Below, piece after piece: positions 2,479 to 48,901 of a stretch of DNA of 48,901 nucleotides (position 1 is its first letter; every line of letters begins with the position of its first letter). The position numbers and the translations under genes are program-made. The notes beneath the pieces are model-generated. The model was not told the DNA's origin. It saw only the letters and a list, made by a program, of their open reading frames with translations, and ran no database searches. The stretch comes from a virus (lineage: Duplodnaviria > Heunggongvirae > Uroviricota > Caudoviricetes): IMG/VR virus record IMGVR_UViG_3300045988_155985; one strand, written 5' to 3'.

Positions 2479-3851
2479 TGCTTCACCTGAATTACGACAT
2501 AACGCACCTACGCGGCGCGGAATATAACCCGCGTTTTATCGGTGAGGATGATCTTGCGAGGCTGGCCGAAAGCGTCAGGGAGCTGGGGCTTGTGAAGCCA
2601 TTGATAGTGCGCGGCGATTTGCTGGTGGCGGGACACCAAAGGACGAAGGCGCTACGTAAGTTGGGAATAACGCGTGCTGCGGTGTATGTGTTGCCCTGTG
2701 AAACGACGGTATACGACGAAGTTCGGTTTAACCAACTGCATAACGGAACGGATTTTGATAGCGGAGATGAGCGTTGCAGGGTGTCCGGTCTGGAAGATAA
2801 GCATGGTTTTGTTCAGGTATCGGCAAGCCAGATCTCAGGCAATATGCGCGCGAAAATGGCATATGTTCGAAAGAACATAGCGGAACTGGTTATCAAGTAT
2901 GGTCCGTGGGGTGGTTGTGTTGCTACTCAGTCTGGTGAGGTTATTCACTGTGCTCAGTATGCATTAGCAGCGAAAATGACGCGCACACCGCTAACGGTGT
3001 TTGTGATCCCTGATGTTGAGAAGGAAAAATACCAAAGTTATCTGAATAAAACTTATGGTGTATTTGAGTATTCTCATCTGGAGAAAACAACATACATCCA
3101 GACGTATGCGCAGCTTATGCGGTTGCGTAATGGTGGCAGCCTGAAATCAAACCTGTATGAGTCGTTGATCCTCCCGATCATTGCCAAGACGCCAAGAGGA
3201 ATTGATTTTGGTTCGGGGCAGGGAGACTACGCGCGAATGCTCAGGGCAAAGGGATATAACCTGCATGATCTCGAGCTTTTCCGCCGTAAGGGCGCTGGAA
3301 ACACTCTGGATAGGACCGCAACAAACCGGATGATTGATACGCTGGTGGACGACTTAAAAACGCGAGGGCGTTACGACTACGTGATTTGCGATAGCGTTTT
3401 GAACTCGGTCGATAGTGTCGAGGCTGAATGGTCCGTTCTGACGGTTCTGAAAGGCCTGTGTAAAGCTGGTGGGTCAATATTCTTTTCTGGTCGTAGCCGT
3501 GGAGAGCTGGAAACAGTCCTGAAGCAAACACAAGCGGCGAGTTCCAAAAGCCGGCTTTATTTTATTGATCATAACGGTTTTACCGCGTTGTACCGGAAGG
3601 GGCACTGGTTTTACCAGAAGTTTCACTCTGATGATGAAGTGAAGCAGTTGTGTCGTGTACATGGTTTCAGGATTAAGCGGTCAATATTCAACTGTAAGAG
3701 CTGGTATTTGCACGTCATTAACGATGATTCCCTTAGTTGGGCGAGTCTGGAGAAAGCTGTTCGTTTTGAGTTTGAGTTGCCGTTGCCTGGTGGTTCAACA
3801 ATCGGACGATCTGATGATGTGCTGGCGGCTTTCCGGCCGTTGATTAAGTAG
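2478..3851 (+). CDS. fusion protein: ParB/Srx-like N-terminal domain plus class I SAM-dependent methyltransferase-like C-terminal domain
   Basis: N-terminal VAGHQRTKAL (ParB GxxR-like); C-terminal GIDFGSGQG (motif I-like), acidic post-I, YDYVICDSVL (motif II-like); ATG 2478 overlaps upstream stop (TGATG); no DPPY/NPPY motif seen. Confidence 0.6.
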   Translation: MLHLNYDITHLRGAEYNPRFIGEDDLARLAESVRELGLVKPLIVRGDLLVAGHQRTKALRKLGITRAAVYVLPCETTVYDEVRFNQLHNGTDFDSGDERCRVSGLEDKHGFVQVSASQISGNMRAKMAYVRKNIAELVIKYGPWGGCVATQSGEVIHCAQYALAAKMTRTPLTVFVIPDVEKEKYQSYLNKTYGVFEYSHLEKTTYIQTYAQLMRLRNGGSLKSNLYESLILPIIAKTPRGIDFGSGQGDYARMLRAKGYNLHDLELFRRKGAGNTLDRTATNRMIDTLVDDLKTRGRYDYVICDSVLNSVDSVEAEWSVLTVLKGLCKAGGSIFFSGRSRGELETVLKQTQAASSKSRLYFIDHNGFTALYRKGHWFYQKFHSDDEVKQLCRVHGFRIKRSIFNCKSWYLHVINDDSLSWASLEKAVRFEFELPLPGGSTIGRSDDVLAAFRPLIK

Positions 3852-23564: not shown

Positions 23565-25799
23565 GTGAGTAAATTATTATTTACGATGACTGACGCCGGG
23601 CGTCAGGAGCTGGTTAATGCCAACAAAACAGGAACAAATAAAGTTGAGATTGTTTCTGTTGGTTTAGGTAGTAGATATTATGTCACGTCAACTTCACAAA
23701 CAAATATAACAAACGAAATAAAACGACTTACCACAATAGGTGGCAAAGTTGTTTCCCCTGATACAATTCATGTAACAGCGAAGGATGATAGTAAAGATGA
23801 GTATGTTGTCCATACAATAGGATTGTATACGAATAAGGGTACGTTGTTTGCTGTATACTCACAAGAACAAGCAATAATAAATAAAGCATCATCTACTATC
23901 GCTTTAATATCAAGTGATATAGCAATTAAAACTCTTGATACTAAAAATATTACATTTGGTGATATTGAGTTTATTAATCCTCCCGCGACCGAAACTGTTG
24001 TTGGGGTGGCAAGATTTGCTAATGAACAAGAAATTGATGCAGGTACAGATGATTCCCTTGCTGTTTCAGCAAAGCGGCTTAAGCAAGCCATTGTGAAACA
24101 TGAGCAATCACGTAATCATCCTGATGCAACTTTAACCTCAAAAGGCTTTGTTCAACTTAGCAGCGCCACCAATAGCACGTCTGAAACGCTTGCTGCGACG
24201 CCTAAGGCTGTTAAGGCAGCATATGACCTTGCTAACGCTAAATACACCGCACAGGACGCTACCACAGCGCGAAAAGGGATTGTTCAGCTCAGTAGTGCCA
24301 CCAACAGCACGTCTGAAACGCTAGCAGCAACACCAAAGGCTGTTAAGGCAGCGTATGATCTTGCGGTCGGAAAGGCTCCGTCCAATCACACGCATTCGTG
24401 GGAGCAGATAACAAATGTGCCTGTAGCTTCACTGACTGTAAGGGGAATAACTCAGCTCAGTAGTGCCACTAACAGCACGTCTGAAACGCTGGCTGCGACA
24501 CCAAAAGCTGTTAAGGCGGTAATGGATGAAACGAACAAGAAAGCGCCCTTAAACAGTCCTGCGCTGACCGGAACACCAACAACACCAACTGCGCCAAAAG
24601 GTACTAACAATACTCAGATCGCAAGCACGGCTTATGTTATGGCTGCGATCGCTGCCCTCGTGGACTCGTCGCCTGACGCACTGAATACGCTGAACGAGCT
24701 GGCTGCGGCGTTGGGCAACGACCCGAATTTTGCGACCACCATGACTAACGCGCTTGCGGGTAAGCAACCGAAAGATGCCACCCTGACGGCGCTGGCCGGG
24801 CTTGCTACTGCGGCAGACAGGTTTCCGTATTTTACGGGGAATGATGTTGCCAGTCTGGCAACCCTGACAAAAGTTGGGCGGGATATTCTTGCGAAATCGA
24901 CCGTTGCCGCCGTTATCGAATACCTCGGTTTGCAGGAAACGGTAAACAGGGCTGGTAACGCCGTGCAAAAAAATGGCGATACCTTGTCCGGTGGGCTTAC
25001 TTTTGAAAATGACTCAATCCTTGCTTGGATTCGAAATACTGACTGGGCGAAGATTGGATTTAAAAATGATGCCGATGGTGACACTGATTCATACATGTGG
25101 TTTGAAACAGGCGACAACGGCAATGAATATTTCAAATGGAGAAGCAAACAAAGCACCACAACAAAAGACCTGATGACGCTGAAATGGGATGCACTAAATA
25201 TTCTTGTTAATGCCGTCATTAATGGCAGCCTTGGAGTTGGTACGACGAATGCGTTAGGTGGTAGCTCTATTGTTCTTGGTGATAATGATACCGGATTTAA
25301 ACAGAATGGAGACGGTATTCTTGATGTTTACGCTAATAGTCAGCGAGTATTCCGCTTTCAGAATGGAGTTGCTATTGCTTTTAAAAACATTCAGGCAGGT
25401 GATAGTAAAAAATTCTCGCTATCCAGCTCCAACACCTCCACAAAGAATGTAACGTTTAATTTATGGGGTGCTTCAACCCGTCCAGTAGTTGCAGAGTTAG
25501 GCGATGAGGCAGGATGGCATTTCTATAGCCAGCGAAATACAGATAACTCGGTAATATTTTCTGTTAACGGTCAGATACAGCCCAGCAACTGGGGGAATTT
25601 TGATTCACGCTATGTAAAAGATGTTCGCCTGGGTACGCGAGTTGTTCAATTGATGGCGCGTGGTGGTCGTTATGAAAAAGCCGGACACGCAATTACCGGA
25701 TTAAGAATCATTGGTGAAGTAGATGGCGATGATGAAGCCATCTTCAGACCAATACAAAAATACATCAATGGCACATGGTATAACGTCGCACAGGTGTAA
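23565..25799 (+). CDS. tail fibre protein: constant N-terminal part plus variable C-terminal part in the currently expressed orientation
   Basis: 744 aa; GTG start after AAGGAA; internal fibre repeats; crossover site at 24923-24946 lies inside the gene. Confidence 0.8.
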   Translation: MSKLLFTMTDAGRQELVNANKTGTNKVEIVSVGLGSRYYVTSTSQTNITNEIKRLTTIGGKVVSPDTIHVTAKDDSKDEYVVHTIGLYTNKGTLFAVYSQEQAIINKASSTIALISSDIAIKTLDTKNITFGDIEFINPPATETVVGVARFANEQEIDAGTDDSLAVSAKRLKQAIVKHEQSRNHPDATLTSKGFVQLSSATNSTSETLAATPKAVKAAYDLANAKYTAQDATTARKGIVQLSSATNSTSETLAATPKAVKAAYDLAVGKAPSNHTHSWEQITNVPVASLTVRGITQLSSATNSTSETLAATPKAVKAVMDETNKKAPLNSPALTGTPTTPTAPKGTNNTQIASTAYVMAAIAALVDSSPDALNTLNELAAALGNDPNFATTMTNALAGKQPKDATLTALAGLATAADRFPYFTGNDVASLATLTKVGRDILAKSTVAAVIEYLGLQETVNRAGNAVQKNGDTLSGGLTFENDSILAWIRNTDWAKIGFKNDADGDTDSYMWFETGDNGNEYFKWRSKQSTTTKDLMTLKWDALNILVNAVINGSLGVGTTNALGGSSIVLGDNDTGFKQNGDGILDVYANSQRVFRFQNGVAIAFKNIQAGDSKKFSLSSSNTSTKNVTFNLWGASTRPVVAELGDEAGWHFYSQRNTDNSVIFSVNGQIQPSNWGNFDSRYVKDVRLGTRVVQLMARGGRYEKAGHAITGLRIIGEVDGDDEAIFRPIQKYINGTWYNVAQV
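24145..24530 (+). repeat. three imperfect direct repeats of about 78 bp inside the tail fibre gene
   Basis: Repeated peptide QLSSATNSTSETLAATPKAVKA; copies at about 24151, 24283 and 24451. Confidence 0.6.
24923..24946. repeat. left inverted repeat / recombination site of the invertible segment
   Basis: CCTCGGTTTGCAGGAAACGGTAAA; exact reverse complement at 27888-27911; core resembles gix/cix sites as recalled. Confidence 0.7.
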
Positions 25800-25802
25800 A
25801 TT

Positions 25803-26336
25803 ATGCAGCATTTAAAAAATATTAAGTCAGGAAATCCAAAAACAAAAGAGCAATATCAGCTAACAAAGAATTTTGATGTTATCTGGTTATGGTCCGAAGA
25901 CGGTAAAAACTGGTATGAAGAACAAAAGAACTTTCAGGAAAACACAATAAAGCTAGCTTACACAGCAGAGGGAATTATTGTTGCTATTGATAAGGATGTA
26001 TCGGCAATTAATCCAGAAGGTTTAAGCGTTGTTGAGTTGCCTGATATAACGGCCAATAGACGGGCTGATATTTCGGGTAACTGGATGTTCAAAGATGGCG
26101 CGGTGATAAAGCGAACTTATACCGAGGAGGAACAGAGGCAGCAGGCAGAGAATGAAAAGCAAAGCCTGTTGCAACTTGTCAGGGATAAAACCCAGCTATG
26201 GGACTCACAGCTACGGCTGGGTATCATTTCCGACGAGAATAAACTAAAATTAACCGAGTGGATGCTCTATGCGCAGAAAGTCGAATCTACAGACACCTCC
26301 AGCCTGCCAGTAACGTTTCCCGAACAACCAGAATGA
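25803..26336 (+). CDS. tail fibre assembly protein (expressed orientation)
   Basis: 177 aa; N-terminus [14 protein letters not shown] shared with the minus-strand paralog. Confidence 0.75.
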
Positions 26337-26364
26337 GACAAGGCCCGCTATCGGGCCTTAATTT

Positions 26365-26892
26365 TTATTCAGGCTTTTGTGGCCATTCAGGATTTGCCGT
26401 ATCCACACGGCTGACCAGAACACTGTAGCGTTCCCATGATTCCAGTCGTGCGCGTTCCTCATCCGTCGCCATATTCAGCCTGACAGCGCGCTCCAGTGGC
26501 TGAATAACGCTTTCTGCTTCGGAAAGTAACGCGGCCTTTTGTGATTCGGCCTGTTGTTGCTGTTCGTCAGCCGTATAAATCCGTTTAACCACAGCTCCGT
26601 CCTTAAACATCCACTTACCGGAATCATCGGCCCGACGATTGGTTGTTATATCGGGAACCTCAACGACGCTAAAACCTTCAGGGTTAAGCGTGGATGCATC
26701 TTTGGTGATGGCGACAATAATATTATTTTCATCGTAAACAATCTTTATGGTGTCTGGCTGAAAGTTTTTCACTTCCTCATACCAGTTTTTTCCGTCCTCA
26801 GAGTAAAGCCAGATAACTCCGTGTTTCTTTGTTAACTCATACTGTTCCAGTGTTTTAGCGTTACCCGCTTTTATGTTCTTTAAGTGCATCAT
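26365..26892 (-). CDS. alternative tail fibre assembly protein (silent orientation)
   Basis: 175 aa; paralogous N-terminus [14 protein letters not shown]; convergent to 25803-26336. Confidence 0.75.
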
Positions 26893-26893
26893 A

Positions 26894-27904
26894 TTAAACG
26901 CTCGCTACATTATACCAGGTGCCATTTATATACTTTTGAACGGGTCTGTAATAAACGCCCGCTATATTATCGGCAGAATTGGACCCTGTATCCTGAACAT
27001 TAATACCAGTCAATACATGACCTGACGGGCACTGGAAATTCCATGTTTGCCAGTTGTTCACGCCATAATATTGCTGTGAACCAAGTCGAACATCTTTCAC
27101 ATAACGGGAATCAAAGTTACCGTAATCTGAGGGATTAACACGCCCTGTAATATTTATGGTTTTATTACTTTGAATACTGCCGGAGACAAAGCGCATAACA
27201 TGGACGTTATTAGCATAAACATCCAGATACCCGTCGCCATTTTGTTTAAATCCCGTGTCATTATCACCCAAAACAATCGAGTTACCGCCAAGAGCACTGG
27301 ATGTACCGATGCCCAGTGCACCATTCAATTGACCTCCAGATAATGACAACGCCCCAACATCAGCAGCAGTCGGTTTAATGTGCGAACTGTAAATTACATA
27401 TACAGTTCCATCTGTCAGACCTGTTGGTTTATTCGCTGTATAAGTTGGTGATGTATGAATCGTTACGCTGGCGTTACTGGTATAATCCCACTGAATATTA
27501 ACACCTGTGGCGTAATTACCTATTTCAACATAAACATCATAGGTATCACCTGATGTATTCACCCATGCAAAATTAGTAAATCCAACCGATGTCCGTCGCC
27601 ATAACGCACCAGTAAGACCTTTTGGATTTCCATTTCCCGCACGAAGAACAAGTTCAGATATACCAGCCTGCATAGGGGAGTTAACATTATATCCAGCACC
27701 ACCAATCAGGCTTATGTAAACCACGGAACTGGCTTGTGGCATTGTTACAGTTGCCAGTTTGAACCATCCAGCACCACCACTAAAAGACATGGTTGTTGAA
27801 TTTGTTGTGCCGATATTACGCAGGAATAGTTTTTTATCGGGAATATCTGCGCCGTTCTGGTTTTTCTGTAATGCGCCAGAAGCCTGATTTACCGTTTCCT
27901 GCAA
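26894..27904 (-). CDS. alternative tail fibre C-terminal variable region (promoterless until inversion)
   Basis: Track start is TTG; encodes LQETVNQ which continues the fibre frame across the crossover site; shares [17 protein letters not shown] and C-terminal [11 protein letters not shown] with the plus-strand fibre. Confidence 0.7.
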
Positions 27905-27911
27905 ACCGAGG
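27888..27911. repeat. right inverted repeat / recombination site of the invertible segment
   Basis: TTTACCGTTTCCTGCAAACCGAGG, reverse complement of 24923-24946. Confidence 0.7.
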
Positions 27912-27985
27912 TTTTTGCGAATTGCCTCTGTGTCGTCTGAACGATATTTTTTCCCGCTTTTAGCAACAATCGCGGTTTAGAAAGT

Positions 27986-32280: not shown

Positions 32281-32393
32281 TATTTATATAATTATAGATT
32301 TATATAAAAAGTGCTTTACAGGTGGGAAAAAATTTCCTAAGGTTATACCCGAAACCGAGCGATACCCGCCCTGGTTAAACCGGAGATAACCCG
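32281..32393 (+). promoter_or_regulatory. promoter-operator-leader cassette, copy B
   Basis: AT-rich repeat 32281-32310; -35-like TTTACA 32315-32320; 17-bp spacer with inverted repeat GGAAA-AAA-TTTCC; -10-like TAAGGT 32338-32343; conserved 50-nt leader. Confidence 0.5.
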
Positions 32394-32774
32394 ATGAGCA
32401 TGATTAAAATCCGCAAAAACGCTTTCCTTAAAATTCAAACTATCCTGGCTGGTTCTGTTGGCGTGATTTGCCGTTCTTCCTCAAGCCGCATCGATGACGG
32501 CTACGATGATGAGTATCGTGTGTCCTCATGCGATGAGGCTTTAACCTGGCTGAAGGAGAATCAGGAACGTGCCCAGGTATATCTGGAAACAGAGAACGGC
32601 AATCAGATGCTGCGTATTAGCGGTCGTTATGGATTTGAAACTACATTCATGGCCTATTTTAATCAGGCTTACTTTGACAAGGAGTTGGCTTGGTACACTG
32701 ATCGCATGAGCAAAAGCGAGCCAGCCCCGATTACACCGCCGAACAATAAACCATTTTTATTCCTCGTTAAGTAA
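32394..32774 (+). CDS. hypothetical protein, 126 aa, first gene of cassette B
   Basis: ORF track; ATG within conserved leader context. Confidence 0.5.
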   Translation: MSMIKIRKNAFLKIQTILAGSVGVICRSSSSRIDDGYDDEYRVSSCDEALTWLKENQERAQVYLETENGNQMLRISGRYGFETTFMAYFNQAYFDKELAWYTDRMSKSEPAPITPPNNKPFLFLVK

Positions 32775-33919: not shown

Positions 33920-35065
33920 TTATGGTCTGCTTTTCTGTGCCAGCTTATCAGCACATGTTTTTATCAGATCCTGTAGTGTCCTGGCTGGCAGGTTTGCATC
34001 CAGAACGCTGAGTATGCTGTTGTGATCAGCCTGGTCGACTACTTTGCCTGTCGGTGGTAGTAGCTTGAGCTGAGGATTCAGGTTTTCGTCAAAGCTGATA
34101 AGTGCTCTGGCGTTTCTGAGCAGATCAAGAAGTAAGGCTGATATCACATTTTCCTGAGTCATTGCTGGCAGATTTAGCGCCGCTTTAGTTTTCCCTGTTG
34201 CCTTGTCAAACTCCTTGATTAGTTCCTTCCTGTAGTTCGGTTCCGTTAATAGCCGATTATGCTCTGTTGCCGCGCGGATAATCGTTTTTTCCTGGTATAG
34301 TCGTTTAGCCAGATCACGCTCGTACTGTGTTTTTAACACGCTGCTGATAGCGTTAAAGGCTTCAATGTAGGCCAGCTTGATATCTTTCACGCCTGGACCG
34401 TCGATGCTCTCCATGAGCAAGGTAAATCCGTCTTTTGTCATGCGATAGATTGTTATTTCGCGGTCGCTTCCTTCCAGCGGTCGTTGTTCTTTAAAAAAGT
34501 GACGCGCCGCAGCTGTGCGAGGAATGCGTAACGCATCGATGGCCATAACGATGGAATTGTTTGTGGTGCTGAATGCCTGGGCAACATCGGCTGAGGTTGT
34601 GAGTGGCTCGTTATTGCACACCTTAATGTAAAACATCGGTTTGGCGTTGAGCGTATCGACAACCTCACGAGCATTGTTTGGCGAGACGGTTACGGTCGCG
34701 GCCGTTTGCGCGTTCTGGTTGAAATAGCAGTCTTCCAGTTTTTCGAACACATCCCAAGCCTGATCGGTTTCAAGCATTTTGGCGTGACGTGCAGCCCCGC
34801 GTTCTGTCCAGAGGATGAGGGAGCGGACTTTAGGTGAAACTGGATTTTGTGAGTAGTTTAAAGCTACCCGCAATTCTTTAAGGTCATTACCAACAACTTT
34901 GAAAAAGTGTTTCCCTTCAACGAAACGTACTTTGTTCTCATGATGATTCTGGCGAATACGCACCGGCTCAGTGCCGTAAAGCTGTGCCAGTAACTCGGTA
35001 GTAATGACAGGGATTTGGTTATGCAGGATAGGCTGTAGGGTGTTAACGGTCGGAAGCGTTTTCAT
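33920..35065 (-). CDS. antirepressor (Ant-like) with ORF6N/Rha-like domains
   Basis: 381 aa; N-terminal VITTELLAQLYG and central ADVAQAFS segments resemble antirepressor/Rha-family domains. Confidence 0.7.
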   Translation of the reverse strand: MKTLPTVNTLQPILHNQIPVITTELLAQLYGTEPVRIRQNHHENKVRFVEGKHFFKVVGNDLKELRVALNYSQNPVSPKVRSLILWTERGAARHAKMLETDQAWDVFEKLEDCYFNQNAQTAATVTVSPNNAREVVDTLNAKPMFYIKVCNNEPLTTSADVAQAFSTTNNSIVMAIDALRIPRTAAARHFFKEQRPLEGSDREITIYRMTKDGFTLLMESIDGPGVKDIKLAYIEAFNAISSVLKTQYERDLAKRLYQEKTIIRAATEHNRLLTEPNYRKELIKEFDKATGKTKAALNLPAMTQENVISALLLDLLRNARALISFDENLNPQLKLLPPTGKVVDQADHNSILSVLDANLPARTLQDLIKTCADKLAQKSRP

Positions 35066-35253
35066 TTTGTACCTCCCATAACTACTTTGGTTACGAGGGC
35101 GATTTTTGCGTCAGAAACAGCGTTATCGTTGCTGGCGATGCGCATAGCTTCTCGCTCAATGATTTCAGCCAGGCGGAATTTATCGGCGTATGAGGCTTTC
35201 TTGAGAAGGATCTTTACGAGGTTGACGTAATAGTCATGGGGTAGGTTTGTCAT
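35062..35253 (-). CDS. small protein translationally coupled to ant (icd-like position)
   Basis: 63 aa; stop TGA overlaps ant ATG (ATGA). Confidence 0.45.
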   Translation of the reverse strand: MTNLPHDYYVNLVKILLKKASYADKFRLAEIIEREAMRIASNDNAVSDAKIALVTKVVMGGTK

Positions 35254-35418
35254 TGTGATGATTCCCTTAAAGGTTAAGGATACTCACCACCGTCAGGTTC
35301 CAATCATTGGGTGGTGAGACGTGCAGGGTTGGAACTACCGGACACAATGACGAACCGGCGAGTCTTACGACTCCCCCGCACGCCCCACCATAATTTGGGT
35401 GTAGCAGTGCTTTACGCA

Positions 35419-35440
35419 TAAAAAAACCGCTAACGCGGTA
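35419..35440 (-). terminator. minus-strand rho-independent terminator
   Basis: On the minus strand: hairpin ACCGCGTTAGCGGT followed by TTTTTTT. Confidence 0.5.
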
Positions 35441-35585
35441 TGCGCCATTGTGTCTACGGGGTTCCAATCCCGACCGTAGATTTTGCTACGGCTCGGAAAG
35501 TGTCCACCAATGGCGCATTCATGTCAATACGGCGGGATTTTAACAGAGACAACCACATAGCGTGGGTTTATTGGTAGGCAGAAAC

Positions 35586-35613
35586 AAAAAAACCGCCCTA
35601 TTGAGGACGGTTC
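35586..35613 (-). terminator. minus-strand rho-independent terminator
   Basis: On the minus strand: hairpin AACCGTCC-TCAATA-GGGCGGTT followed by TTTTTTTG. Confidence 0.55.
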
Positions 35614-35760
35614 TTTCGTGCTGATCGGATTCGCGGTCCTTTCAGCATAACGTCGTTGTATAAACAACCACGCAAGCACAAGCGGCGTATCTATTCTTAC
35701 TCAACTGAGGTGAATAGTCCACTATTCATATAAAGAAATTTAGTTCCTTAGTTCATGCAG
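35586..35760 (-). ncRNA. candidate small regulatory RNA upstream of the ant operon (c4-like position)
   Basis: ORF-free leader on the minus strand ending at terminators; self-complementary motifs GGTTCCAA and TTGGAAC nearby; no promoter defined. Confidence 0.25.
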
Positions 35761-35999
35761 AATGAAGTTTTTTAACTTCTTCGGATGTAATTACATGTAA
35801 TAAAAGCATTTGTTATTCCTTCATTATGAAGGCGAGGACGTGTAATATGGCTTGGGGCCTTTTCGCCGATTCGCACCCGGGCACCGACTTTAAGGAAAGG
35901 ATCATCCACTTGCCGTACACGCAAGCACAAGCGGTGTGCTTGCTCTCGCGTCATTTTCGTCGGTGGAGATGCCGTGAAACGGCCTGTAAGGGCCACACA

Positions 36000-36122
36000 A
36001 TGAAAAAATACTACATGTGTATTTTTATCGTTGTTACTGGAGCTTTGTTTACGCCACATGGGGAGGGTTGGAAGATTACTGATAACGCTCTGAATGTGAC
36101 GATAAACATTAGCAGCAAGTAG
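36000..36122 (+). CDS. small hydrophobic peptide, 40 aa
   Basis: MKKYYMCIFIVVTGALF N-terminus; ATG 36000; strong terminator immediately downstream. Confidence 0.3.
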   Translation: MKKYYMCIFIVVTGALFTPHGEGWKITDNALNVTINISSK

Positions 36123-36128
36123 CGATTA

Positions 36129-36150
36129 GGCCCCTTCGGGGGCCTTTTTT
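36129..36150 (+). terminator. rho-independent terminator
   Basis: Hairpin GGCCCC-TTCG-GGGGCC followed by TTTTTT. Confidence 0.6.
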
Positions 36151-36627: not shown

Positions 36628-36664
36628 CCCCTCTTATATAAATCTATAAAACTATAATTATATA

Positions 36665-37341: not shown

Positions 37342-37446
37342 TTATATAATTCTATAAATCTATATTTATAGAACGAGGTAAGCATAACCAACTTTTTGGC
37401 GGATGAAAAGCGTTTTATATAATTATATAAAACTATAATCATATAA
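37342..37446. repeat. AT-rich TATAATTATA-type repeat cluster upstream of parA; candidate centromere/operator
   Basis: Two blocks (37342-37373, 37412-37446); a related block at 36632-36667 between parA and parG. Confidence 0.4.
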
Positions 37447-41116: not shown

Positions 41117-41166
41117 AAGTGTCATTTTGAGCTGTTTTGATGGTGTGTAGACATCGGTAACATCGA

Positions 41167-41285
41167 AAATCTATAAATATATAATTATAGATTTATATAA
41201 AAAGTGCTTTACAGGTGGGAAAAAATTTCCTAAGGTTATACCCGAAACCGAGCGATACCCGCCCTGGTTAAACCGGAGAAATCTG
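41167..41285 (+). promoter_or_regulatory. promoter-operator-leader cassette, copy C
   Basis: AT-rich repeat 41167-41203; TTTACA 41208-41213; spacer with GGAAA-AAA-TTTCC; TAAGGT 41231-41236; conserved leader. Confidence 0.5.
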
Positions 41286-42353
41286 ATGAATAAACAAGAA
41301 ATTATTTCTGACTGGATCAACAACCCTAACAGCCTGTTAAGCACTGATACTGGCTACCTATTACGCCATGTTAATGGTCGTATGGTCAAAAGCGATGAGC
41401 ACGAAACCTTTTTCTTTGTTGAAGACGATGGGCGCATCTATGAGGATGGTTACTCTTATGAAGCCCAAACTGGTTGTATCCCTGCGGAGCTGGTGGACGT
41501 AACAGAAGATCTGCGCAAAGCATGGCTTGAACAGCAGCAGCGCGGAGATGATTACGTAAACACCTATCAGGAACGCCAGAACGCGCGTCTTGCCCGATAT
41601 ATTGCTCGTGCAGAAAAAGCCAGAAAAGAAGGTGCGGTAGCGCATAAGCGAGCGCATGACCTGTTGGATGTGATCCCGTTAGGCCAGCCGATTTTAGTTG
41701 ACCATTATAGCGCGAAAGGCCATCGCCGCCGTTTGTCTAAAGCTGATGCGTTATTAAGAAAAGCGTTTGTTGAATGCGAAAGTAAAGCATCACACTACGA
41801 GAGCAAAGCCGCAGGTGTTGGTCGTAATGGAATTTCGTCTGATGATCCTGATGCGCTATTTAAGTTGCTTCGTAAGCTGCAAGGCTGCATGAAGTCACAC
41901 GTCAAAATGAAGGCCGCAAATAAGGCCATTCGCAAATACAAAAAAGACCAATTACAGCAGCTTTCTGCATTAATCGATCTCAGGTTTACAGAAAGCGAAG
42001 CCAAAGAGTTACTGGCCGGAGATTTCTGTGGGCGCATCGGATTCCCTTCATACGCACTGAGCAACAATAACGCCGAAATCAAACGACTACAGAGCCGTAT
42101 TAAGGAGCTTGAATCGGTCAAGTCTGTAACAGGAGCACAGCGCGAAGAATACGACGGCTTTTCTATGGAGATAGATCCAGAGGATAACCGCATCCTGTTT
42201 TATTTCCCTGGCAAACCAGAGGCAAACATTCGTTCGCTGCTTAAATCACGCGCCTTTAAGTGGAGTCCAACCCGTAATGCATGGGTTCGCAAGATTACTC
42301 CAAACGCCCTGGCTGATGCCCGATATCTAAAAGAATCGCTATTGAAAGCCTGA
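41286..42353 (+). CDS. hypothetical protein, 355 aa, first gene of cassette C
   Basis: ORF track; basic helical C-terminal half; no catalytic motif recognised. Confidence 0.5.
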   Translation: MNKQEIISDWINNPNSLLSTDTGYLLRHVNGRMVKSDEHETFFFVEDDGRIYEDGYSYEAQTGCIPAELVDVTEDLRKAWLEQQQRGDDYVNTYQERQNARLARYIARAEKARKEGAVAHKRAHDLLDVIPLGQPILVDHYSAKGHRRRLSKADALLRKAFVECESKASHYESKAAGVGRNGISSDDPDALFKLLRKLQGCMKSHVKMKAANKAIRKYKKDQLQQLSALIDLRFTESEAKELLAGDFCGRIGFPSYALSNNNAEIKRLQSRIKELESVKSVTGAQREEYDGFSMEIDPEDNRILFYFPGKPEANIRSLLKSRAFKWSPTRNAWVRKITPNALADARYLKESLLKA

Positions 42354-42363
42354 CAGTAAGCCT

Positions 42364-42390
42364 ACGGCGGGACGTCTCCCGCCGTATATA
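42364..42390 (+). terminator. hairpin/terminator after the 355-aa gene
   Basis: Perfect 9-bp stem ACGGCGGGA-CGTC-TCCCGCCGT followed by AT-rich tract. Confidence 0.4.
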
Positions 42391-42430
42391 GAATTATATA
42401 TTTATATAAATGTATAAGGACGCCTCGACA

Positions 42431-47520: not shown

Positions 47521-47644
47521 TACCGCCTGTGATTGGGTAAAGCCCATCTACCTGACTGATCACGACATCGATGTTATGGACCGCCAGACAAAGAAAGATA
47601 TTCTGGCTCATAACAGGGCATGGGAAATCAACTGCCCAAAGTAA
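47435..47644 (+). CDS. o-spanin (Rz1-like lipoprotein), overlapping the i-spanin in another frame
   Basis: Lipobox-like LIASC with Cys at residue 18; starts inside 47242-47520. Confidence 0.6.
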   Translation: MYSRVLTIWLMTMLIASCGSRGSVPVVVDTACDWVKPIYLTDHDIDVMDRQTKKDILAHNRAWEINCPK

Positions 47645-47813
47645 TATATATTTCTGTAATTATATAAATATATAGTTACAACATTCTATGCGCTTTTCTC
47701 ATGAGCGCACGCATCAACCATGTTTGTCTGATATGCCGCCGCGCCCAAAAATCCTGAATTTATTGGCTGGGATTTTCGTGCGCGGCGCCACACCAGACAA
47801 ACAGATCAAATAT

Positions 47814-47889
47814 GGCCCCTTAGCTCAGTGGTTAGAGCAGGCGACTCATAATCGCACGGTCATCGGTTCAAATCCGGTAGGGGCCACCA
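47814..47889 (+). tRNA. tRNA with CAU anticodon (Met or lysidine-dependent Ile2; resembles ileX-type)
   Basis: Perfect 7-bp acceptor stem GGCCCCT/AGGGGCC; D-arm GCTC/GAGC; anticodon loop CTCATAA; T-arm with TTCAAAT; encoded 3' CCA. Confidence 0.85.
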
Positions 47890-48197: not shown

Positions 48198-48785
48198 ATG
48201 GAGGCAATTGCATTGTTTAATCTGATTTATGCAGATCCCCCCTGGGAATACAAAGACAAGTGTAAGGATGGGAATCGTGGCGCTGGTTTTAAGTATCCAA
48301 CGATGAAAGCTGAGGATATTGCTCGTATTCCTGTCTGGCAGCTTGCTAATCCTGAATCGTGTTTGTTGGCCATGTGGTGGGTTCCGACTCAGCCAGAAGA
48401 AGCGTTGCTGGTGGTGAAAGCATGGGGATTCAGGCTGATGACCATGAAGGGCTTCACATGGAACAAATGTGGTAGCCGACAGCCAGACAAGCTGGTGATG
48501 GGGATGGGGCATATGACTCGTGCAAACAGTGAAGATTGCTTGTTTGCGGTAAAAGGCAAACTGCCGACCCGCCTTGATGCGGGGATTATTCAGTCGTTTA
48601 CATCGCCTCGTCTGGAGCATTCTCGGAAGCCTGATGTGGTCCGTGACAAGCTGGTAAAGCTGTTAGGCGATGTTCCTCGTATTGAGCTGTTTGCTCGCGG
48701 TGATTTACCTGATGGCTGGCATGGCTGGGGCAACCAGTGCAACGGAGGTATCCAGTTGCATGATGCTCTCTGGCAAATGTCATAG
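48198..48785 (+). CDS. DNA N6-adenine methyltransferase, MT-A70 family
   Basis: LIYADPPWEY (DPPW motif); 195 aa. Confidence 0.75.
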   Translation: MEAIALFNLIYADPPWEYKDKCKDGNRGAGFKYPTMKAEDIARIPVWQLANPESCLLAMWWVPTQPEEALLVVKAWGFRLMTMKGFTWNKCGSRQPDKLVMGMGHMTRANSEDCLFAVKGKLPTRLDAGIIQSFTSPRLEHSRKPDVVRDKLVKLLGDVPRIELFARGDLPDGWHGWGNQCNGGIQLHDALWQMS

Positions 48786-48901
48786 AATTATATAATTATA
48801 GATTTATATAAAAAATGCTTTACAGGTGGGAAAAAATTTCCTAAGGTTATACCCGAAACCGAGCGATACCCGCCCTGGTTAAACCGGAGATAACCCGATG
48901 A
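48786..48901 (+). promoter_or_regulatory. promoter-operator-leader cassette, copy D (same physical copy as window start on the circle)
   Basis: AT-rich repeat 48786-48815; TTTACA 48819-48824; spacer with GGAAA-AAA-TTTCC; TAAGGT 48842-48847; leader continues as 1-55. Confidence 0.5.

Follow-up and report, generated by a model that had tools for sequence, protein, structure and literature searches.

An intergenic regulatory region of the DNA analyzed here, a stretch of 48,901 nucleotides referred to as the window, contains two identical 17-mers at a distance of 249 bp, and the question raised by this locus is whether they are binding sites of one regulator or the DNA trace of an antisense RNA pair. 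An exact search of the window located CACGCAAGCACAAGCGG at 35669-35685 and 35918-35934, on the plus strand in both cases, and thereby confirmed the direct repeat reported in the first-pass annotation. The exact repeat is 17 nt long because the flanking bases differ between the copies; the sequence is non-palindromic and the two copies are direct repeats. According to hand arithmetic, the expectation for an exact direct recurrence of a 17-mer within 300 nt is about 1e-3 in a 48.9-kb sequence. When up to three mismatches were allowed, the only other match in the window was found at 3521-3537, and none of 100 dinucleotide shuffles contained three or more matches to CACGCAAGCACAAGCGG (shuffle mean of 0.17). 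This third partial copy (3521-3540, 16 of 20 positions matched), inside a ParB-like CDS, was rejected as a chance match because it is identical in a class-B plasmid with a different sRNA recognition sequence and shows no covariation.

Copy 2 comprises 3 nt before the stem, followed by the 5' arm and the loop of the hairpin GCAAGCACA-AGCGG-TGTGCTTGC (35921-35943), which shows 9 bp in both the MFE and the centroid folds. The folds thus agree with the earlier description, in which this copy supplies the 5' arm and loop of a hairpin with a 9-bp stem that precedes the gene of a 40-amino acid peptide. The RNA duplex between the reverse complement of copy 1 and copy 2 has 21 bp including two G.U pairs, with 17 Watson-Crick pairs, and on the side of copy 1 the pairing reaches 35689 with these two G.U pairs.

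We consider it very likely that the repeat marks a timPR (ryfA/ryfB) type I toxin-antitoxin module carried by an E. coli phage-plasmid, with one copy in each half of the module. In Salmonella, TimP is a 38-amino acid toxic inner-membrane protein whose translation and toxicity have been demonstrated, and TimR is a divergently encoded sRNA shown to repress TimP (PMC7667032). The 5' end of Salmonella TimR pairs over 18 nt with the stem-loop SL2 of the timP 5'UTR, according to compensatory mutations, in vitro translation and structure probing (PMC7667032, PMC11228461). The Salmonella timP leader contains four stem-loops, with a 7-bp SL1-SL3 pseudoknot that is essential for translation and the Shine-Dalgarno sequence sequestered in SL4 (PMC11228461). 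In the window, both RNAs are homologous to those of timPR, the peptide is TimP-like, the structures are conserved and the two copies of the repeat covary. The locus is a divergent, unannotated and mobile member of the known timPR family, and not a new kind of system. By analogy with the Salmonella and E. coli system, we infer that both units would be transcribed, that the peptide would be toxic and that the translational mechanism would be shared. The coordinates of the features are collected in Table 1.

Table 1. Features of the timPR-like module and of the neighboring isrK-C4-ant unit in the window.
Feature	Position	Strand	Description
Repeat copy 1	35669..35685	-	Sense-strand image of the TimR-like 5' recognition tract (RNA CCGCUUGUGCUUGCGUG); covaries with copy 2
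Repeat copy 2, predicted TimR-binding site	35918..35934	+	In SL2 (35921-35943); UTR position 66
Predicted TimR-like antitoxin sRNA gene	~35688-35586	-	About 100 nt; approximate, predicted ends
Putative sigma-70 sRNA promoter	35693..35721	-	TGGACT (35721-35716), 17 nt, AAGAAT (35698-35693)
sRNA intrinsic terminator	35586..35611	-	ACCGUCCU-CAAU-AGGGCGGU then U7; 8-bp GC-rich stem
Putative timP-like -10	35843..35848	+	TAATAT; TAATAT, TAACAT or TAAAAT in all allele classes, with the rest of the spacer replaced
timP-like toxin mRNA (ryfA RNA)	35853..36150	+	147-nt structured 5'UTR, 40-codon ORF and terminator; RF00126
Pseudoknot site, upper SL1	35882..35888	+	CACCGAC; pairs with 35959-35965
Pseudoknot partner, SL3 loop	35959..35965	+	GUCGGUG; also paired with the SL1 tract in the centroid fold
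SL4	35981..35994	+	GGCCU-GUAA-GGGCC; sequesters the Shine-Dalgarno AAGGG (35988-35992); two pairs with both-side changes
TimP-like toxin ORF	36000..36122	+	40 amino acids, MKKYYMCIFIVVTGALFTPHGEGWKITDNALNVTINISSK; MKK, hydrophobic segment, polar tail
timP-like mRNA intrinsic terminator	36128..36150	+	AGGCCCC-TTCG-GGGGCCT and T-run; terminal hairpin of the Rfam model
isrK	35492-35420	-	Rfam match; own promoter TTGACA-17-GACACT
C4	35395-35307	-	Rfam match; followed by a 63-amino acid ORF and a 381-amino acid antirepressor

An Rfam scan of the whole window matched the plus-strand RNA to RF00126 (ryfA) at 35853-36150 over the entire model (positions 1-296 of 296), with 138.4 bits and an E-value of 1.7e-35, the gathering score being 80. 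The score is less than half of that obtained by the chromosomal ryfA of E. coli and Shigella (138 vs 301-326 bits); other chromosomal matches range between 228 and 257 bits, and the plasmid and phage relatives between 142 and 144 bits. The chromosomal genes matched by the same query carry the timP annotation. The mRNA has a predicted length of about 300 nt (fold z = -4.4), and its transcription start is predicted near 35853-35856, the Rfam model beginning at 35853. Within this model copy 2 is aligned to the 5' arm and loop of SL2, and the complementary tract, at UTR position 66 here, is found at positions 62-67, in SL2, in every chromosomal homolog. The location of copy 2 also agrees with the TimR site probed in Salmonella (PMC11228461).

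Alignment of 15 leaders shows that SL1, SL2, SL3, SL4 and the pseudoknot are kept with compensatory changes. In the six leader helices (41 pairs), 93% of the cells are paired, compared with 38-45% in slid controls, and SL1 and SL4 show double (compensatory) changes. The seven pairs of the SL1-SL3 pseudoknot form in all 15 sequences, and in three of them both bases are exchanged in a compensatory manner between the plasmid clade and the chromosomal one.

The 40-amino acid hydrophobic peptide gene described at 36000-36122 in the first-pass annotation was confirmed, and it is followed by a terminator (36128-36145) and a T-run. The NCBIfam model NF040796 (toxic_TimP) aligns with the peptide from end to end (1-40 of 40) with 22.2 bits and an E-value of 1.2e-4. 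The curated cutoff of this model is 45, and the locus was left unannotated by PGAP because the protein model scores under it. BLASTP against E. coli TimP gave a sequence identity of 36% with an E-value of 2e-7, and both proteins have in common the position, the length and the motif MK-x4-C-I-x-x-I/V-V-S/T-G-A-L. The ORF is intact in the 10 aligned plasmid and phage relatives, its sole indel is of 3 nt and in frame, and two independent substitutions within it are synonymous Gly changes. A longer ORF of 98 amino acids (35826-36122), of which the 40-codon ORF is the 3' part, was also considered. Its start precedes the predicted transcription start and its frame is not conserved, and this extension was rejected because the 1- and 2-nt indels tolerated in the 5'UTR of the relatives break the frame. 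In a collection of 5.8 billion proteins, the peptide corresponds to a single unnamed cluster.

These data also bear on a reading in which the plus-strand RNA would be mainly the non-coding sRNA RyfA, the minus-strand RNA its sponge or regulator, and the 40-codon ORF incidental. RyfA has been described as an sRNA that affects stress resistance and virulence in UPEC, APEC and Shigella, and RyfB1 lowers the levels of RyfA1 (PMC5333039, PMC8205139, PMC13188913). Furthermore, the 3' two-thirds of the ORF are nucleotide-invariant among the plasmid classes, and for this reason constraint at the protein level is not demonstrated. However, the ORF, the SL4 that sequesters the Shine-Dalgarno sequence and the pseudoknot that enables translation are all conserved, and the peptide aligns end to end with TimP. 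The in-frame ORF indel, set against the 1- and 2-nt indels of the UTR, and the synonymous Gly changes also speak for a translated ORF, and translation and toxicity of TimP were demonstrated in Salmonella (PMC7667032). We regard a mainly non-coding role as unlikely, and the plus-strand RNA is treated below as a toxin mRNA.

On the minus strand, the predicted TimR-like sRNA shows, in this order, the 5' recognition tract CCGCUUGUGCUUGCGUG, hairpin 1 (GUUGU-UUAU-ACAAC, 35668-35655), hairpin 2 (GCUGA...UCAGC, 35646-35620) and the terminator. The fold of the ~103-nt sRNA has a predicted energy of -43.8 kcal/mol with z = -4.8, and its first ~15 nt are largely unpaired; the last 4 nt of the recognition tract lie in a hairpin stem, the 5' end being otherwise mostly single-stranded. 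In Shigella, RyfB1 transcripts are of about 100 nt (PMC5333039). A search of Rfam with a permissive E-value assigned no family to the sRNA, the best match being RNAI with 26 bits, mostly in the terminator. The central hairpin of the sRNA fits the pattern TGCTGNAANGNCCGCGAANCNGANCAGCA, which is common to the chromosomal TimR genes upstream of timP and was matched in the chromosomes of E. coli, Shigella, Salmonella arizonae, Citrobacter, E. ruysiae and Kluyvera. In addition, alignment with chromosomal TimR shows the same four-part architecture and compensatory changes in both hairpins.

The sRNA terminator is invariant or compensated in the relatives and is absent from the list given by a simple terminator scan. 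The putative sRNA promoter can alternatively be read with a 16-nt spacer and TAAGAA. Its -10 ends 7-8 nt before the complementary tract, and 5-6 nt before it in the one chromosomal promoter counted; the layout is that of the chromosomal TimR promoters, and in the alignment with chromosomal TimR a -10 element ends 5-8 nt ahead of this tract in every lineage. Both promoters of the module are weak consensus matches that were not called by the promoter scan, and the sRNA promoter was missed because it matches the consensus only at 8/12 positions.

Covariation between the two copies was followed in eight chromosomal sequences and in the three allele classes of the plasmids. Allele class A, to which the window belongs, has CACGCAAGCACAAGCGG in both copies, and the recognition sequences of classes B and C are CCACGCA[A/G]GCACAAACAGC and CA[C/T]GCAAGCACAAGCAGC, respectively. 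Within each plasmid class, both copies share identical loop changes. The chromosomal recognition tracts (GCAGGCACCCCACAGTG, GCAGGTG[C/T]TTCACAGC, GCAAGCGCGTCTCAGCG, and GCAGGCACACCATAG) are found at the same UTR position, also with matched copies. In the intermolecular helix, counted over 12 sequences, 14 of the 20 pairs are altered on both sides. The proportion of paired cells is 95.4%, compared with 71.6% in shuffles, and none of 500 shuffles reaches the observed value, although these statistics overstate independence because the register is the best match per locus and the lineages are related. Slid registers of the same helix gave 24-51% of paired cells.

Seven independent internal differences between the copies were scored, and six of them are A-to-G or C-to-T, oriented such that a duplex of the minus-strand sRNA with the plus-strand mRNA would have a G.U pair at these positions. 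This supports both an RNA-level interaction and the strand assignment. In the lineage of Escherichia sp. E1V33, an internal C.A mismatch between the copies was found. The first-pass annotation had proposed that minus-strand RNA from copy 1 might pair in trans with the leader of the peptide gene, and this proposal gains support because the copies covary, the plus-strand RNA matches ryfA and the sRNA body is homologous to TimR, together with the similarity of the peptide to TimP.

Its alternative, that both copies are DNA sites for one regulator coordinating the peptide gene with the neighboring unit, is disfavored. The spacing of the identical 17-mers within an intergenic regulatory region would suit such sites, and a concerted change of the copies is also expected with one co-evolving protein. 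However, copy 2 lies 66 nt past the predicted timP start, inside a conserved RNA hairpin and not in a promoter, copy 1 would occupy approximately positions +1 to +20 of the sRNA, and neither copy overlaps a -35 or a -10. The sequence is also non-palindromic, with its copies in direct orientation. A DNA-binding model does not predict that six of seven internal differences are G.U-compatible transitions, and the eight chromosomal sequences have quite different tracts with no linked regulator gene. Finally, the homologous interaction of Salmonella is proven to be between RNAs (PMC7667032). Taken with these data, a shared protein-binding site is highly improbable, and the antisense RNA pair is the reading retained. 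Two palindromes of the spacer, CCTTCATTATGAAGG (35818-35832, over the timP -35) and ATGTAATTACAT (35785-35796), were considered as shared operators and rejected, as no significant second copy of either was found in the window.

The specificity of the RNA pair was compared by local duplex energies (27 nt by 40 nt). The cognate duplex of the window sRNA on the window SL2 has -42.1 kcal/mol. For chromosomal TimR of E. coli against the plasmid SL2 the values are -20.7 to -25.5 kcal/mol, and for cross-pairing among plasmid classes they are -32 to -36 kcal/mol. The recognition sequence of the plasmids is predicted to be orthogonal to the host chromosomal timPR. In the full-length sRNA-mRNA duplex fold, which ignores intramolecular structure, shuffled sRNAs score equally, and the comparison is therefore based on the local duplexes. 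Shigella RyfB1 tells RyfA1 from RyfA2 via a 5-nt variable region (PMC5333039), so small differences in the loop can matter.

In the mechanism with the best support, which is the one published for timPR, the plus-strand gene (35853-36150) would produce an mRNA of about 300 nt whose 147-nt leader would fold into four stem-loops. The Shine-Dalgarno sequence would be trapped in SL4, and translation of the 40-amino acid membrane peptide would need the SL1-SL3 pseudoknot. The divergent minus-strand gene (~35688-35586) would produce the sRNA of about 100 nt, and its 5' end would pair with the 5' arm and loop of SL2 through 17 Watson-Crick pairs, or 21 with G.U included. This pairing would open SL2 and destabilize the pseudoknot, SL4 would then keep the ribosome-binding site closed, and in the presence of the sRNA the toxin would not be made.

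The first-pass annotation had also placed copy 1 in the leader of the antirepressor gene (ant), and this was found to be wrong. The sRNA terminator (35611-35586) separates both units and isrK-C4-ant starts at 35492; copy 1 is outside the ant leader because isrK-C4-ant has its own promoter downstream of that terminator. A location within this leader would link expression of the antirepressor with the peptide gene, through transcription past the sRNA terminator or through pairing between the ant and timP leaders, and copy 1 is indeed only 177 nt upstream of isrK and on the same strand. However, the terminator between them is strong (8-bp GC-rich stem and U7), and isrK is preceded by a consensus -35 of its own and is predicted to start exactly where the Rfam model does, at position 1. 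Furthermore, the sRNA gene is separated from the ant operon by a 573-nt HTH gene on the opposite strand in the class-B plasmids and the Yersinia phages, and the Salmonella relatives keep isrK-C4-ant without the timPR module. Coupling through the ant leader is therefore very unlikely, and the sRNA gene is considered as part of a separate timPR module.

Between allele classes, identity amounts to 93-100% in the sRNA body and in the CDS. It is 96-99% in the backbone around the module, and only 48-59% in the ~180-nt spacer with the divergent promoters. The only conserved islands of this spacer are the predicted -35 and -10 of the sRNA (TGGAC[T/A] and TAAGAAT/TAAAAT) and the predicted -10 of timP.

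The module was compared with known systems. As in chromosomal timPR (TimP with TimR/RyfB1/STnc2070, in Salmonella, E. coli and Shigella), it shows an RF00126 mRNA of ~300 nt, a predicted peptide in the range of 38-41 amino acids with a putative N-terminal signal-like hydrophobic segment, and a predicted divergent, non-overlapping sRNA of ~100 nt with a terminator and body hairpins. The sRNA 5' end is likewise complementary to the 5' arm and loop of SL2 (17-21 nt), at a distance of more than 50 nt from the downstream ribosome-binding site, and the SL1-SL3 pseudoknot and the sequestration of the Shine-Dalgarno sequence in SL4 are shared. They differ in their location, which is a phage-plasmid, between the immunity and partition modules, instead of the chromosomal position between sseA and sseB. 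The sequence identity of the window RNA to E. coli timP is ~70% and is confined to a part of the RNA; the peptide is 36% identical to E. coli TimP, and its model score is under the NCBIfam cutoff. The intergene spacer is of ~165 nt, which puts the start of copy 1 at 176-195 nt upstream of that of the mRNA, compared with 91-100 nt in most chromosomal loci. In addition, the recognition sequence differs, and is predicted to be orthogonal, SL4 is shorter here than in E. coli, and the promoter spacer is replaced between classes.

The E. coli pairs tisB/istR-1, zorO/orzO, shoB/ohsC, and dinQ/agrB also show a divergent layout, a direct repeat of ~18-20 nt and a small membrane peptide toxin. Since the antitoxin gene of these pairs lies upstream of the toxin gene and is read from the other strand, the short tract shows up in the DNA as a direct repeat. 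However, they show no sequence or structure homology with the locus, the sole trace being OrzO-P, with 15 bits in the terminator. These systems depend on mRNA processing or on standby sites; timP, in contrast, relies on a pseudoknot switch that involves no processing (PMC11228461).

The hok/sok system of plasmid R1 (parB locus) is also an extrachromosomal type I toxin-antitoxin system located beside partition functions, and it is the model for the maintenance role proposed below. It differs in that Sok overlaps hok/mok in cis-antisense, with mok coupling and 3' processing; no Rfam match to hok/sok was found in the window, and here the toxin and antitoxin genes lie ~165 nt apart without overlap. 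The immI c4 of P1/P7 and the isrK-orf45-anrP of Gifsy-1 are represented by the neighboring unit, which is also based on antisense RNA with short repeated tracts that define specificity. However, C4 acts on its own operon, and the 17-nt repeat is found outside the C4 and isrK matches, in a separate module. Assignment of the 17-mer to the a and b sites of c4 was rejected, as it lies outside C4/isrK and upstream of the terminator, and relatives keep c4/isrK without the repeat.

The window corresponds to a ~48.7-kb myovirus-type E. coli phage-plasmid that encodes RepA, ParA, a contractile tail, an HK97-type head and an invertible tail-fiber segment, with the module located between the immunity (isrK-C4-ant) and partition (ParA) modules. 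The module was found in the 58 Escherichia/Klebsiella plasmids of the family in PLSDB (58/58), as well as in three phages isolated on Yersinia pestis. It is missing from three Salmonella relatives, which keep isrK-C4-ant and have another small ORF in the slot, and the module is therefore accessory. A 14-base pattern searched in viral contigs gave 120 matches, of which two were real and the rest chance, and a gapped SL2 pattern gave no matches in genome contigs, though it fits the E. coli locus L008 locally. Within an incomplete coverage of the literature, no paper was found on phage- or plasmid-borne timPR or on the phages vB_YpM_39/41/44.

The position between immunity and partition, the universal presence in the Escherichia clade and the predicted orthogonality to the host pair suggest, from context, that the module may act in maintenance of the element, by post-segregational killing, or in competition between elements. 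A more specific version, to which we give tentative and rather doubtful credit, is that the timPR of the phage-plasmids serves in addiction or competition, its recognition loop having diversified into AAGCGG, AAACAG and AAGCAG classes, orthogonal to the host timPR and in part to each other. If so, host TimR could not rescue a cell that loses the element, related phage-plasmids might discriminate against each other, and the swapped promoter spacers could make the classes differ in their induction logic. A mobile timPR would thereby receive its first functional role, and the pseudoknot switch could be studied with natural specificity variants.

timPR has previously been studied as a chromosomal enterobacterial locus, and a copy on a phage-plasmid makes its role testable through plasmid loss or phage competition. 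The natural allele classes, in each of which both partners carry matched changes, can serve directly as compensatory mutants in studies of the pairing between TimR and SL2. The RefSeq record NZ_AP022818.1 contains an identical module (100% over 581 bases), and its 1.1 kb with timP, TimR, isrK and C4 carries no annotated feature, which exposes an annotation gap. The divergent copy is conserved on a widespread family of ~48-kb E. coli phage-plasmids that includes the Yersinia pestis phages and the plasmid of E. coli ATCC 25922, a reference strain that has both chromosomal timP and a class-B plasmid copy.

Across allele classes A, B and C of the timPR module, the spacer between the divergent promoters (window 35687-35852) shows 48-59% identity, against 93-100% in the flanking RNAs. 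The spacer is effectively swapped out from one allele class to another. It contains two palindromes, CCTTCATTATGAAGG and, farther upstream, ATGTAATTACAT, neither of which has further copies elsewhere in the window. In the near-perfect CCTTCATTATGAAGG, which is kept in classes A and B, not in class C, a central T separates arms of 7 bp each; this palindrome shares bases with the predicted -35 of the timP-like promoter. Both palindromes may be regulator sites. In class-B plasmids and the Yersinia phages vB_YpM_39/41/44, an inserted HTH regulator gene of 540-573 nt separates the isrK promoter from the TimR terminator.

The isrK (67.7 bits) and C4 antisense RNA (77.8 bits) families of Rfam are both found on the minus strand at 35307-35492, followed downstream by a 63-aa ORF and an ORF6N/Rha antirepressor. 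This is an immunity operon resembling P1 immI and Gifsy-1 isrK-orf45-anrP, and it has its own promoter, TTGACA-17-GACACT. Neither isrK nor C4 is annotated in NZ_AP022818.1, the RefSeq record whose timPR module is identical. A type II RelE/ParE module is present on the element as well, which gives it two unrelated toxin-antitoxin modules. The timPR module is missing from Salmonella relatives of the phage-plasmid, whose par region is 81% identical; they have an unannotated ORF in its place, located here on the Salmonella Weltevreden plasmid LN890526 (locus L147). The slot between c4/isrK and par behaves as a cargo site.

Features of the window and of related loci (coordinates refer to the window unless a record or locus is named)
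Feature	Coordinates	Strand	Remarks
63-aa ORF	35062-35253	-	downstream of isrK/C4
381-aa ORF6N/Rha antirepressor	33920-35065	-	downstream of isrK/C4
Palindrome CCTTCATTATGAAGG, 15 bp	35818-35832		
Palindrome ATGTAATTACAT, 12 bp	35785-35796		
Inserted HTH regulator gene	L002 953-1525; L001 4455-4994		
RelE/ParE (HigB2-like) toxin and HTH antitoxin	NZ_AP022818.1 43609-44255; cf. L001 338-984		window equivalent upstream of ant
ORF, ~90 aa	region L147 2950-3300	-	timPR slot, between c4/isrK and par
AT-rich ~30-nt boxes	36634-36664, 37342-37372, 37415-37445, 41161-41199, 42388-42417, 47644-47674, 48780-48810		TTATATAAATCTATAAAACTATAATTATATA family
Inverted repeat, 348 nt	25802-26149 / 26546-26893		71% complementary
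Inverted repeat, 55 nt	24919-24973 / 27861-27915		78% complementary
tRNA gene, anticodon CAT	47814-47889		tRNA-Met (ARAGORN)

Rfam family IS128 (RF00125) adjoins and overlaps the TimR-body pattern, taken from the central hairpin of the TimR-like sRNA, in some chromosomes of E. coli, Shigella and E. ruysiae (loci L138, L139, L141 and L145). In Shigella flexneri the TimR-body pattern occurs twice, at a distance of 326 nt, which fits the siblings RyfB1/RyfB2. The gapped pattern CCGTANANGCANGCACN{3,10}GTGCNTGCTNTCNCG gave no matches in 185,579 species genomes, yet it is present in the E. coli chromosomal locus L008; either the representative genomes are all divergent there or the scan treats variable gaps differently.

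A 114-nt direct repeat is present in three copies with 92-100% identity (32284-32397, 41177-41290 and 48788-48901, also 1-55), each formed by an AT-rich TATATAATTATAGATTTATATAA box and a conserved leader ending in GGAGATAACCCGATGA, and looks like a recurrent promoter/operator and leader before three operons. Because positions 1-55 equal 48847-48901, the window ends overlap, as expected of a circular element. The seven AT-rich boxes, TTATATAAATCTATAAAACTATAATTATATA and its variants, are found in direct and inverted orientations, three of them flanking the ParA operon, and may serve as operators, late promoters or centromere-like sites.

Two inverted repeats, together with a recombinase gene annotated in NZ_AP022818.1, indicate that a tail-fibre segment at 24919-27915 is invertible, like those of the Mu G / P1 C type. 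The tRNA gene assigned by ARAGORN to tRNA-Met is labelled by PGAP, in its NZ_AP022818.1 equivalent, as a lysidine-type tRNA-Ile.
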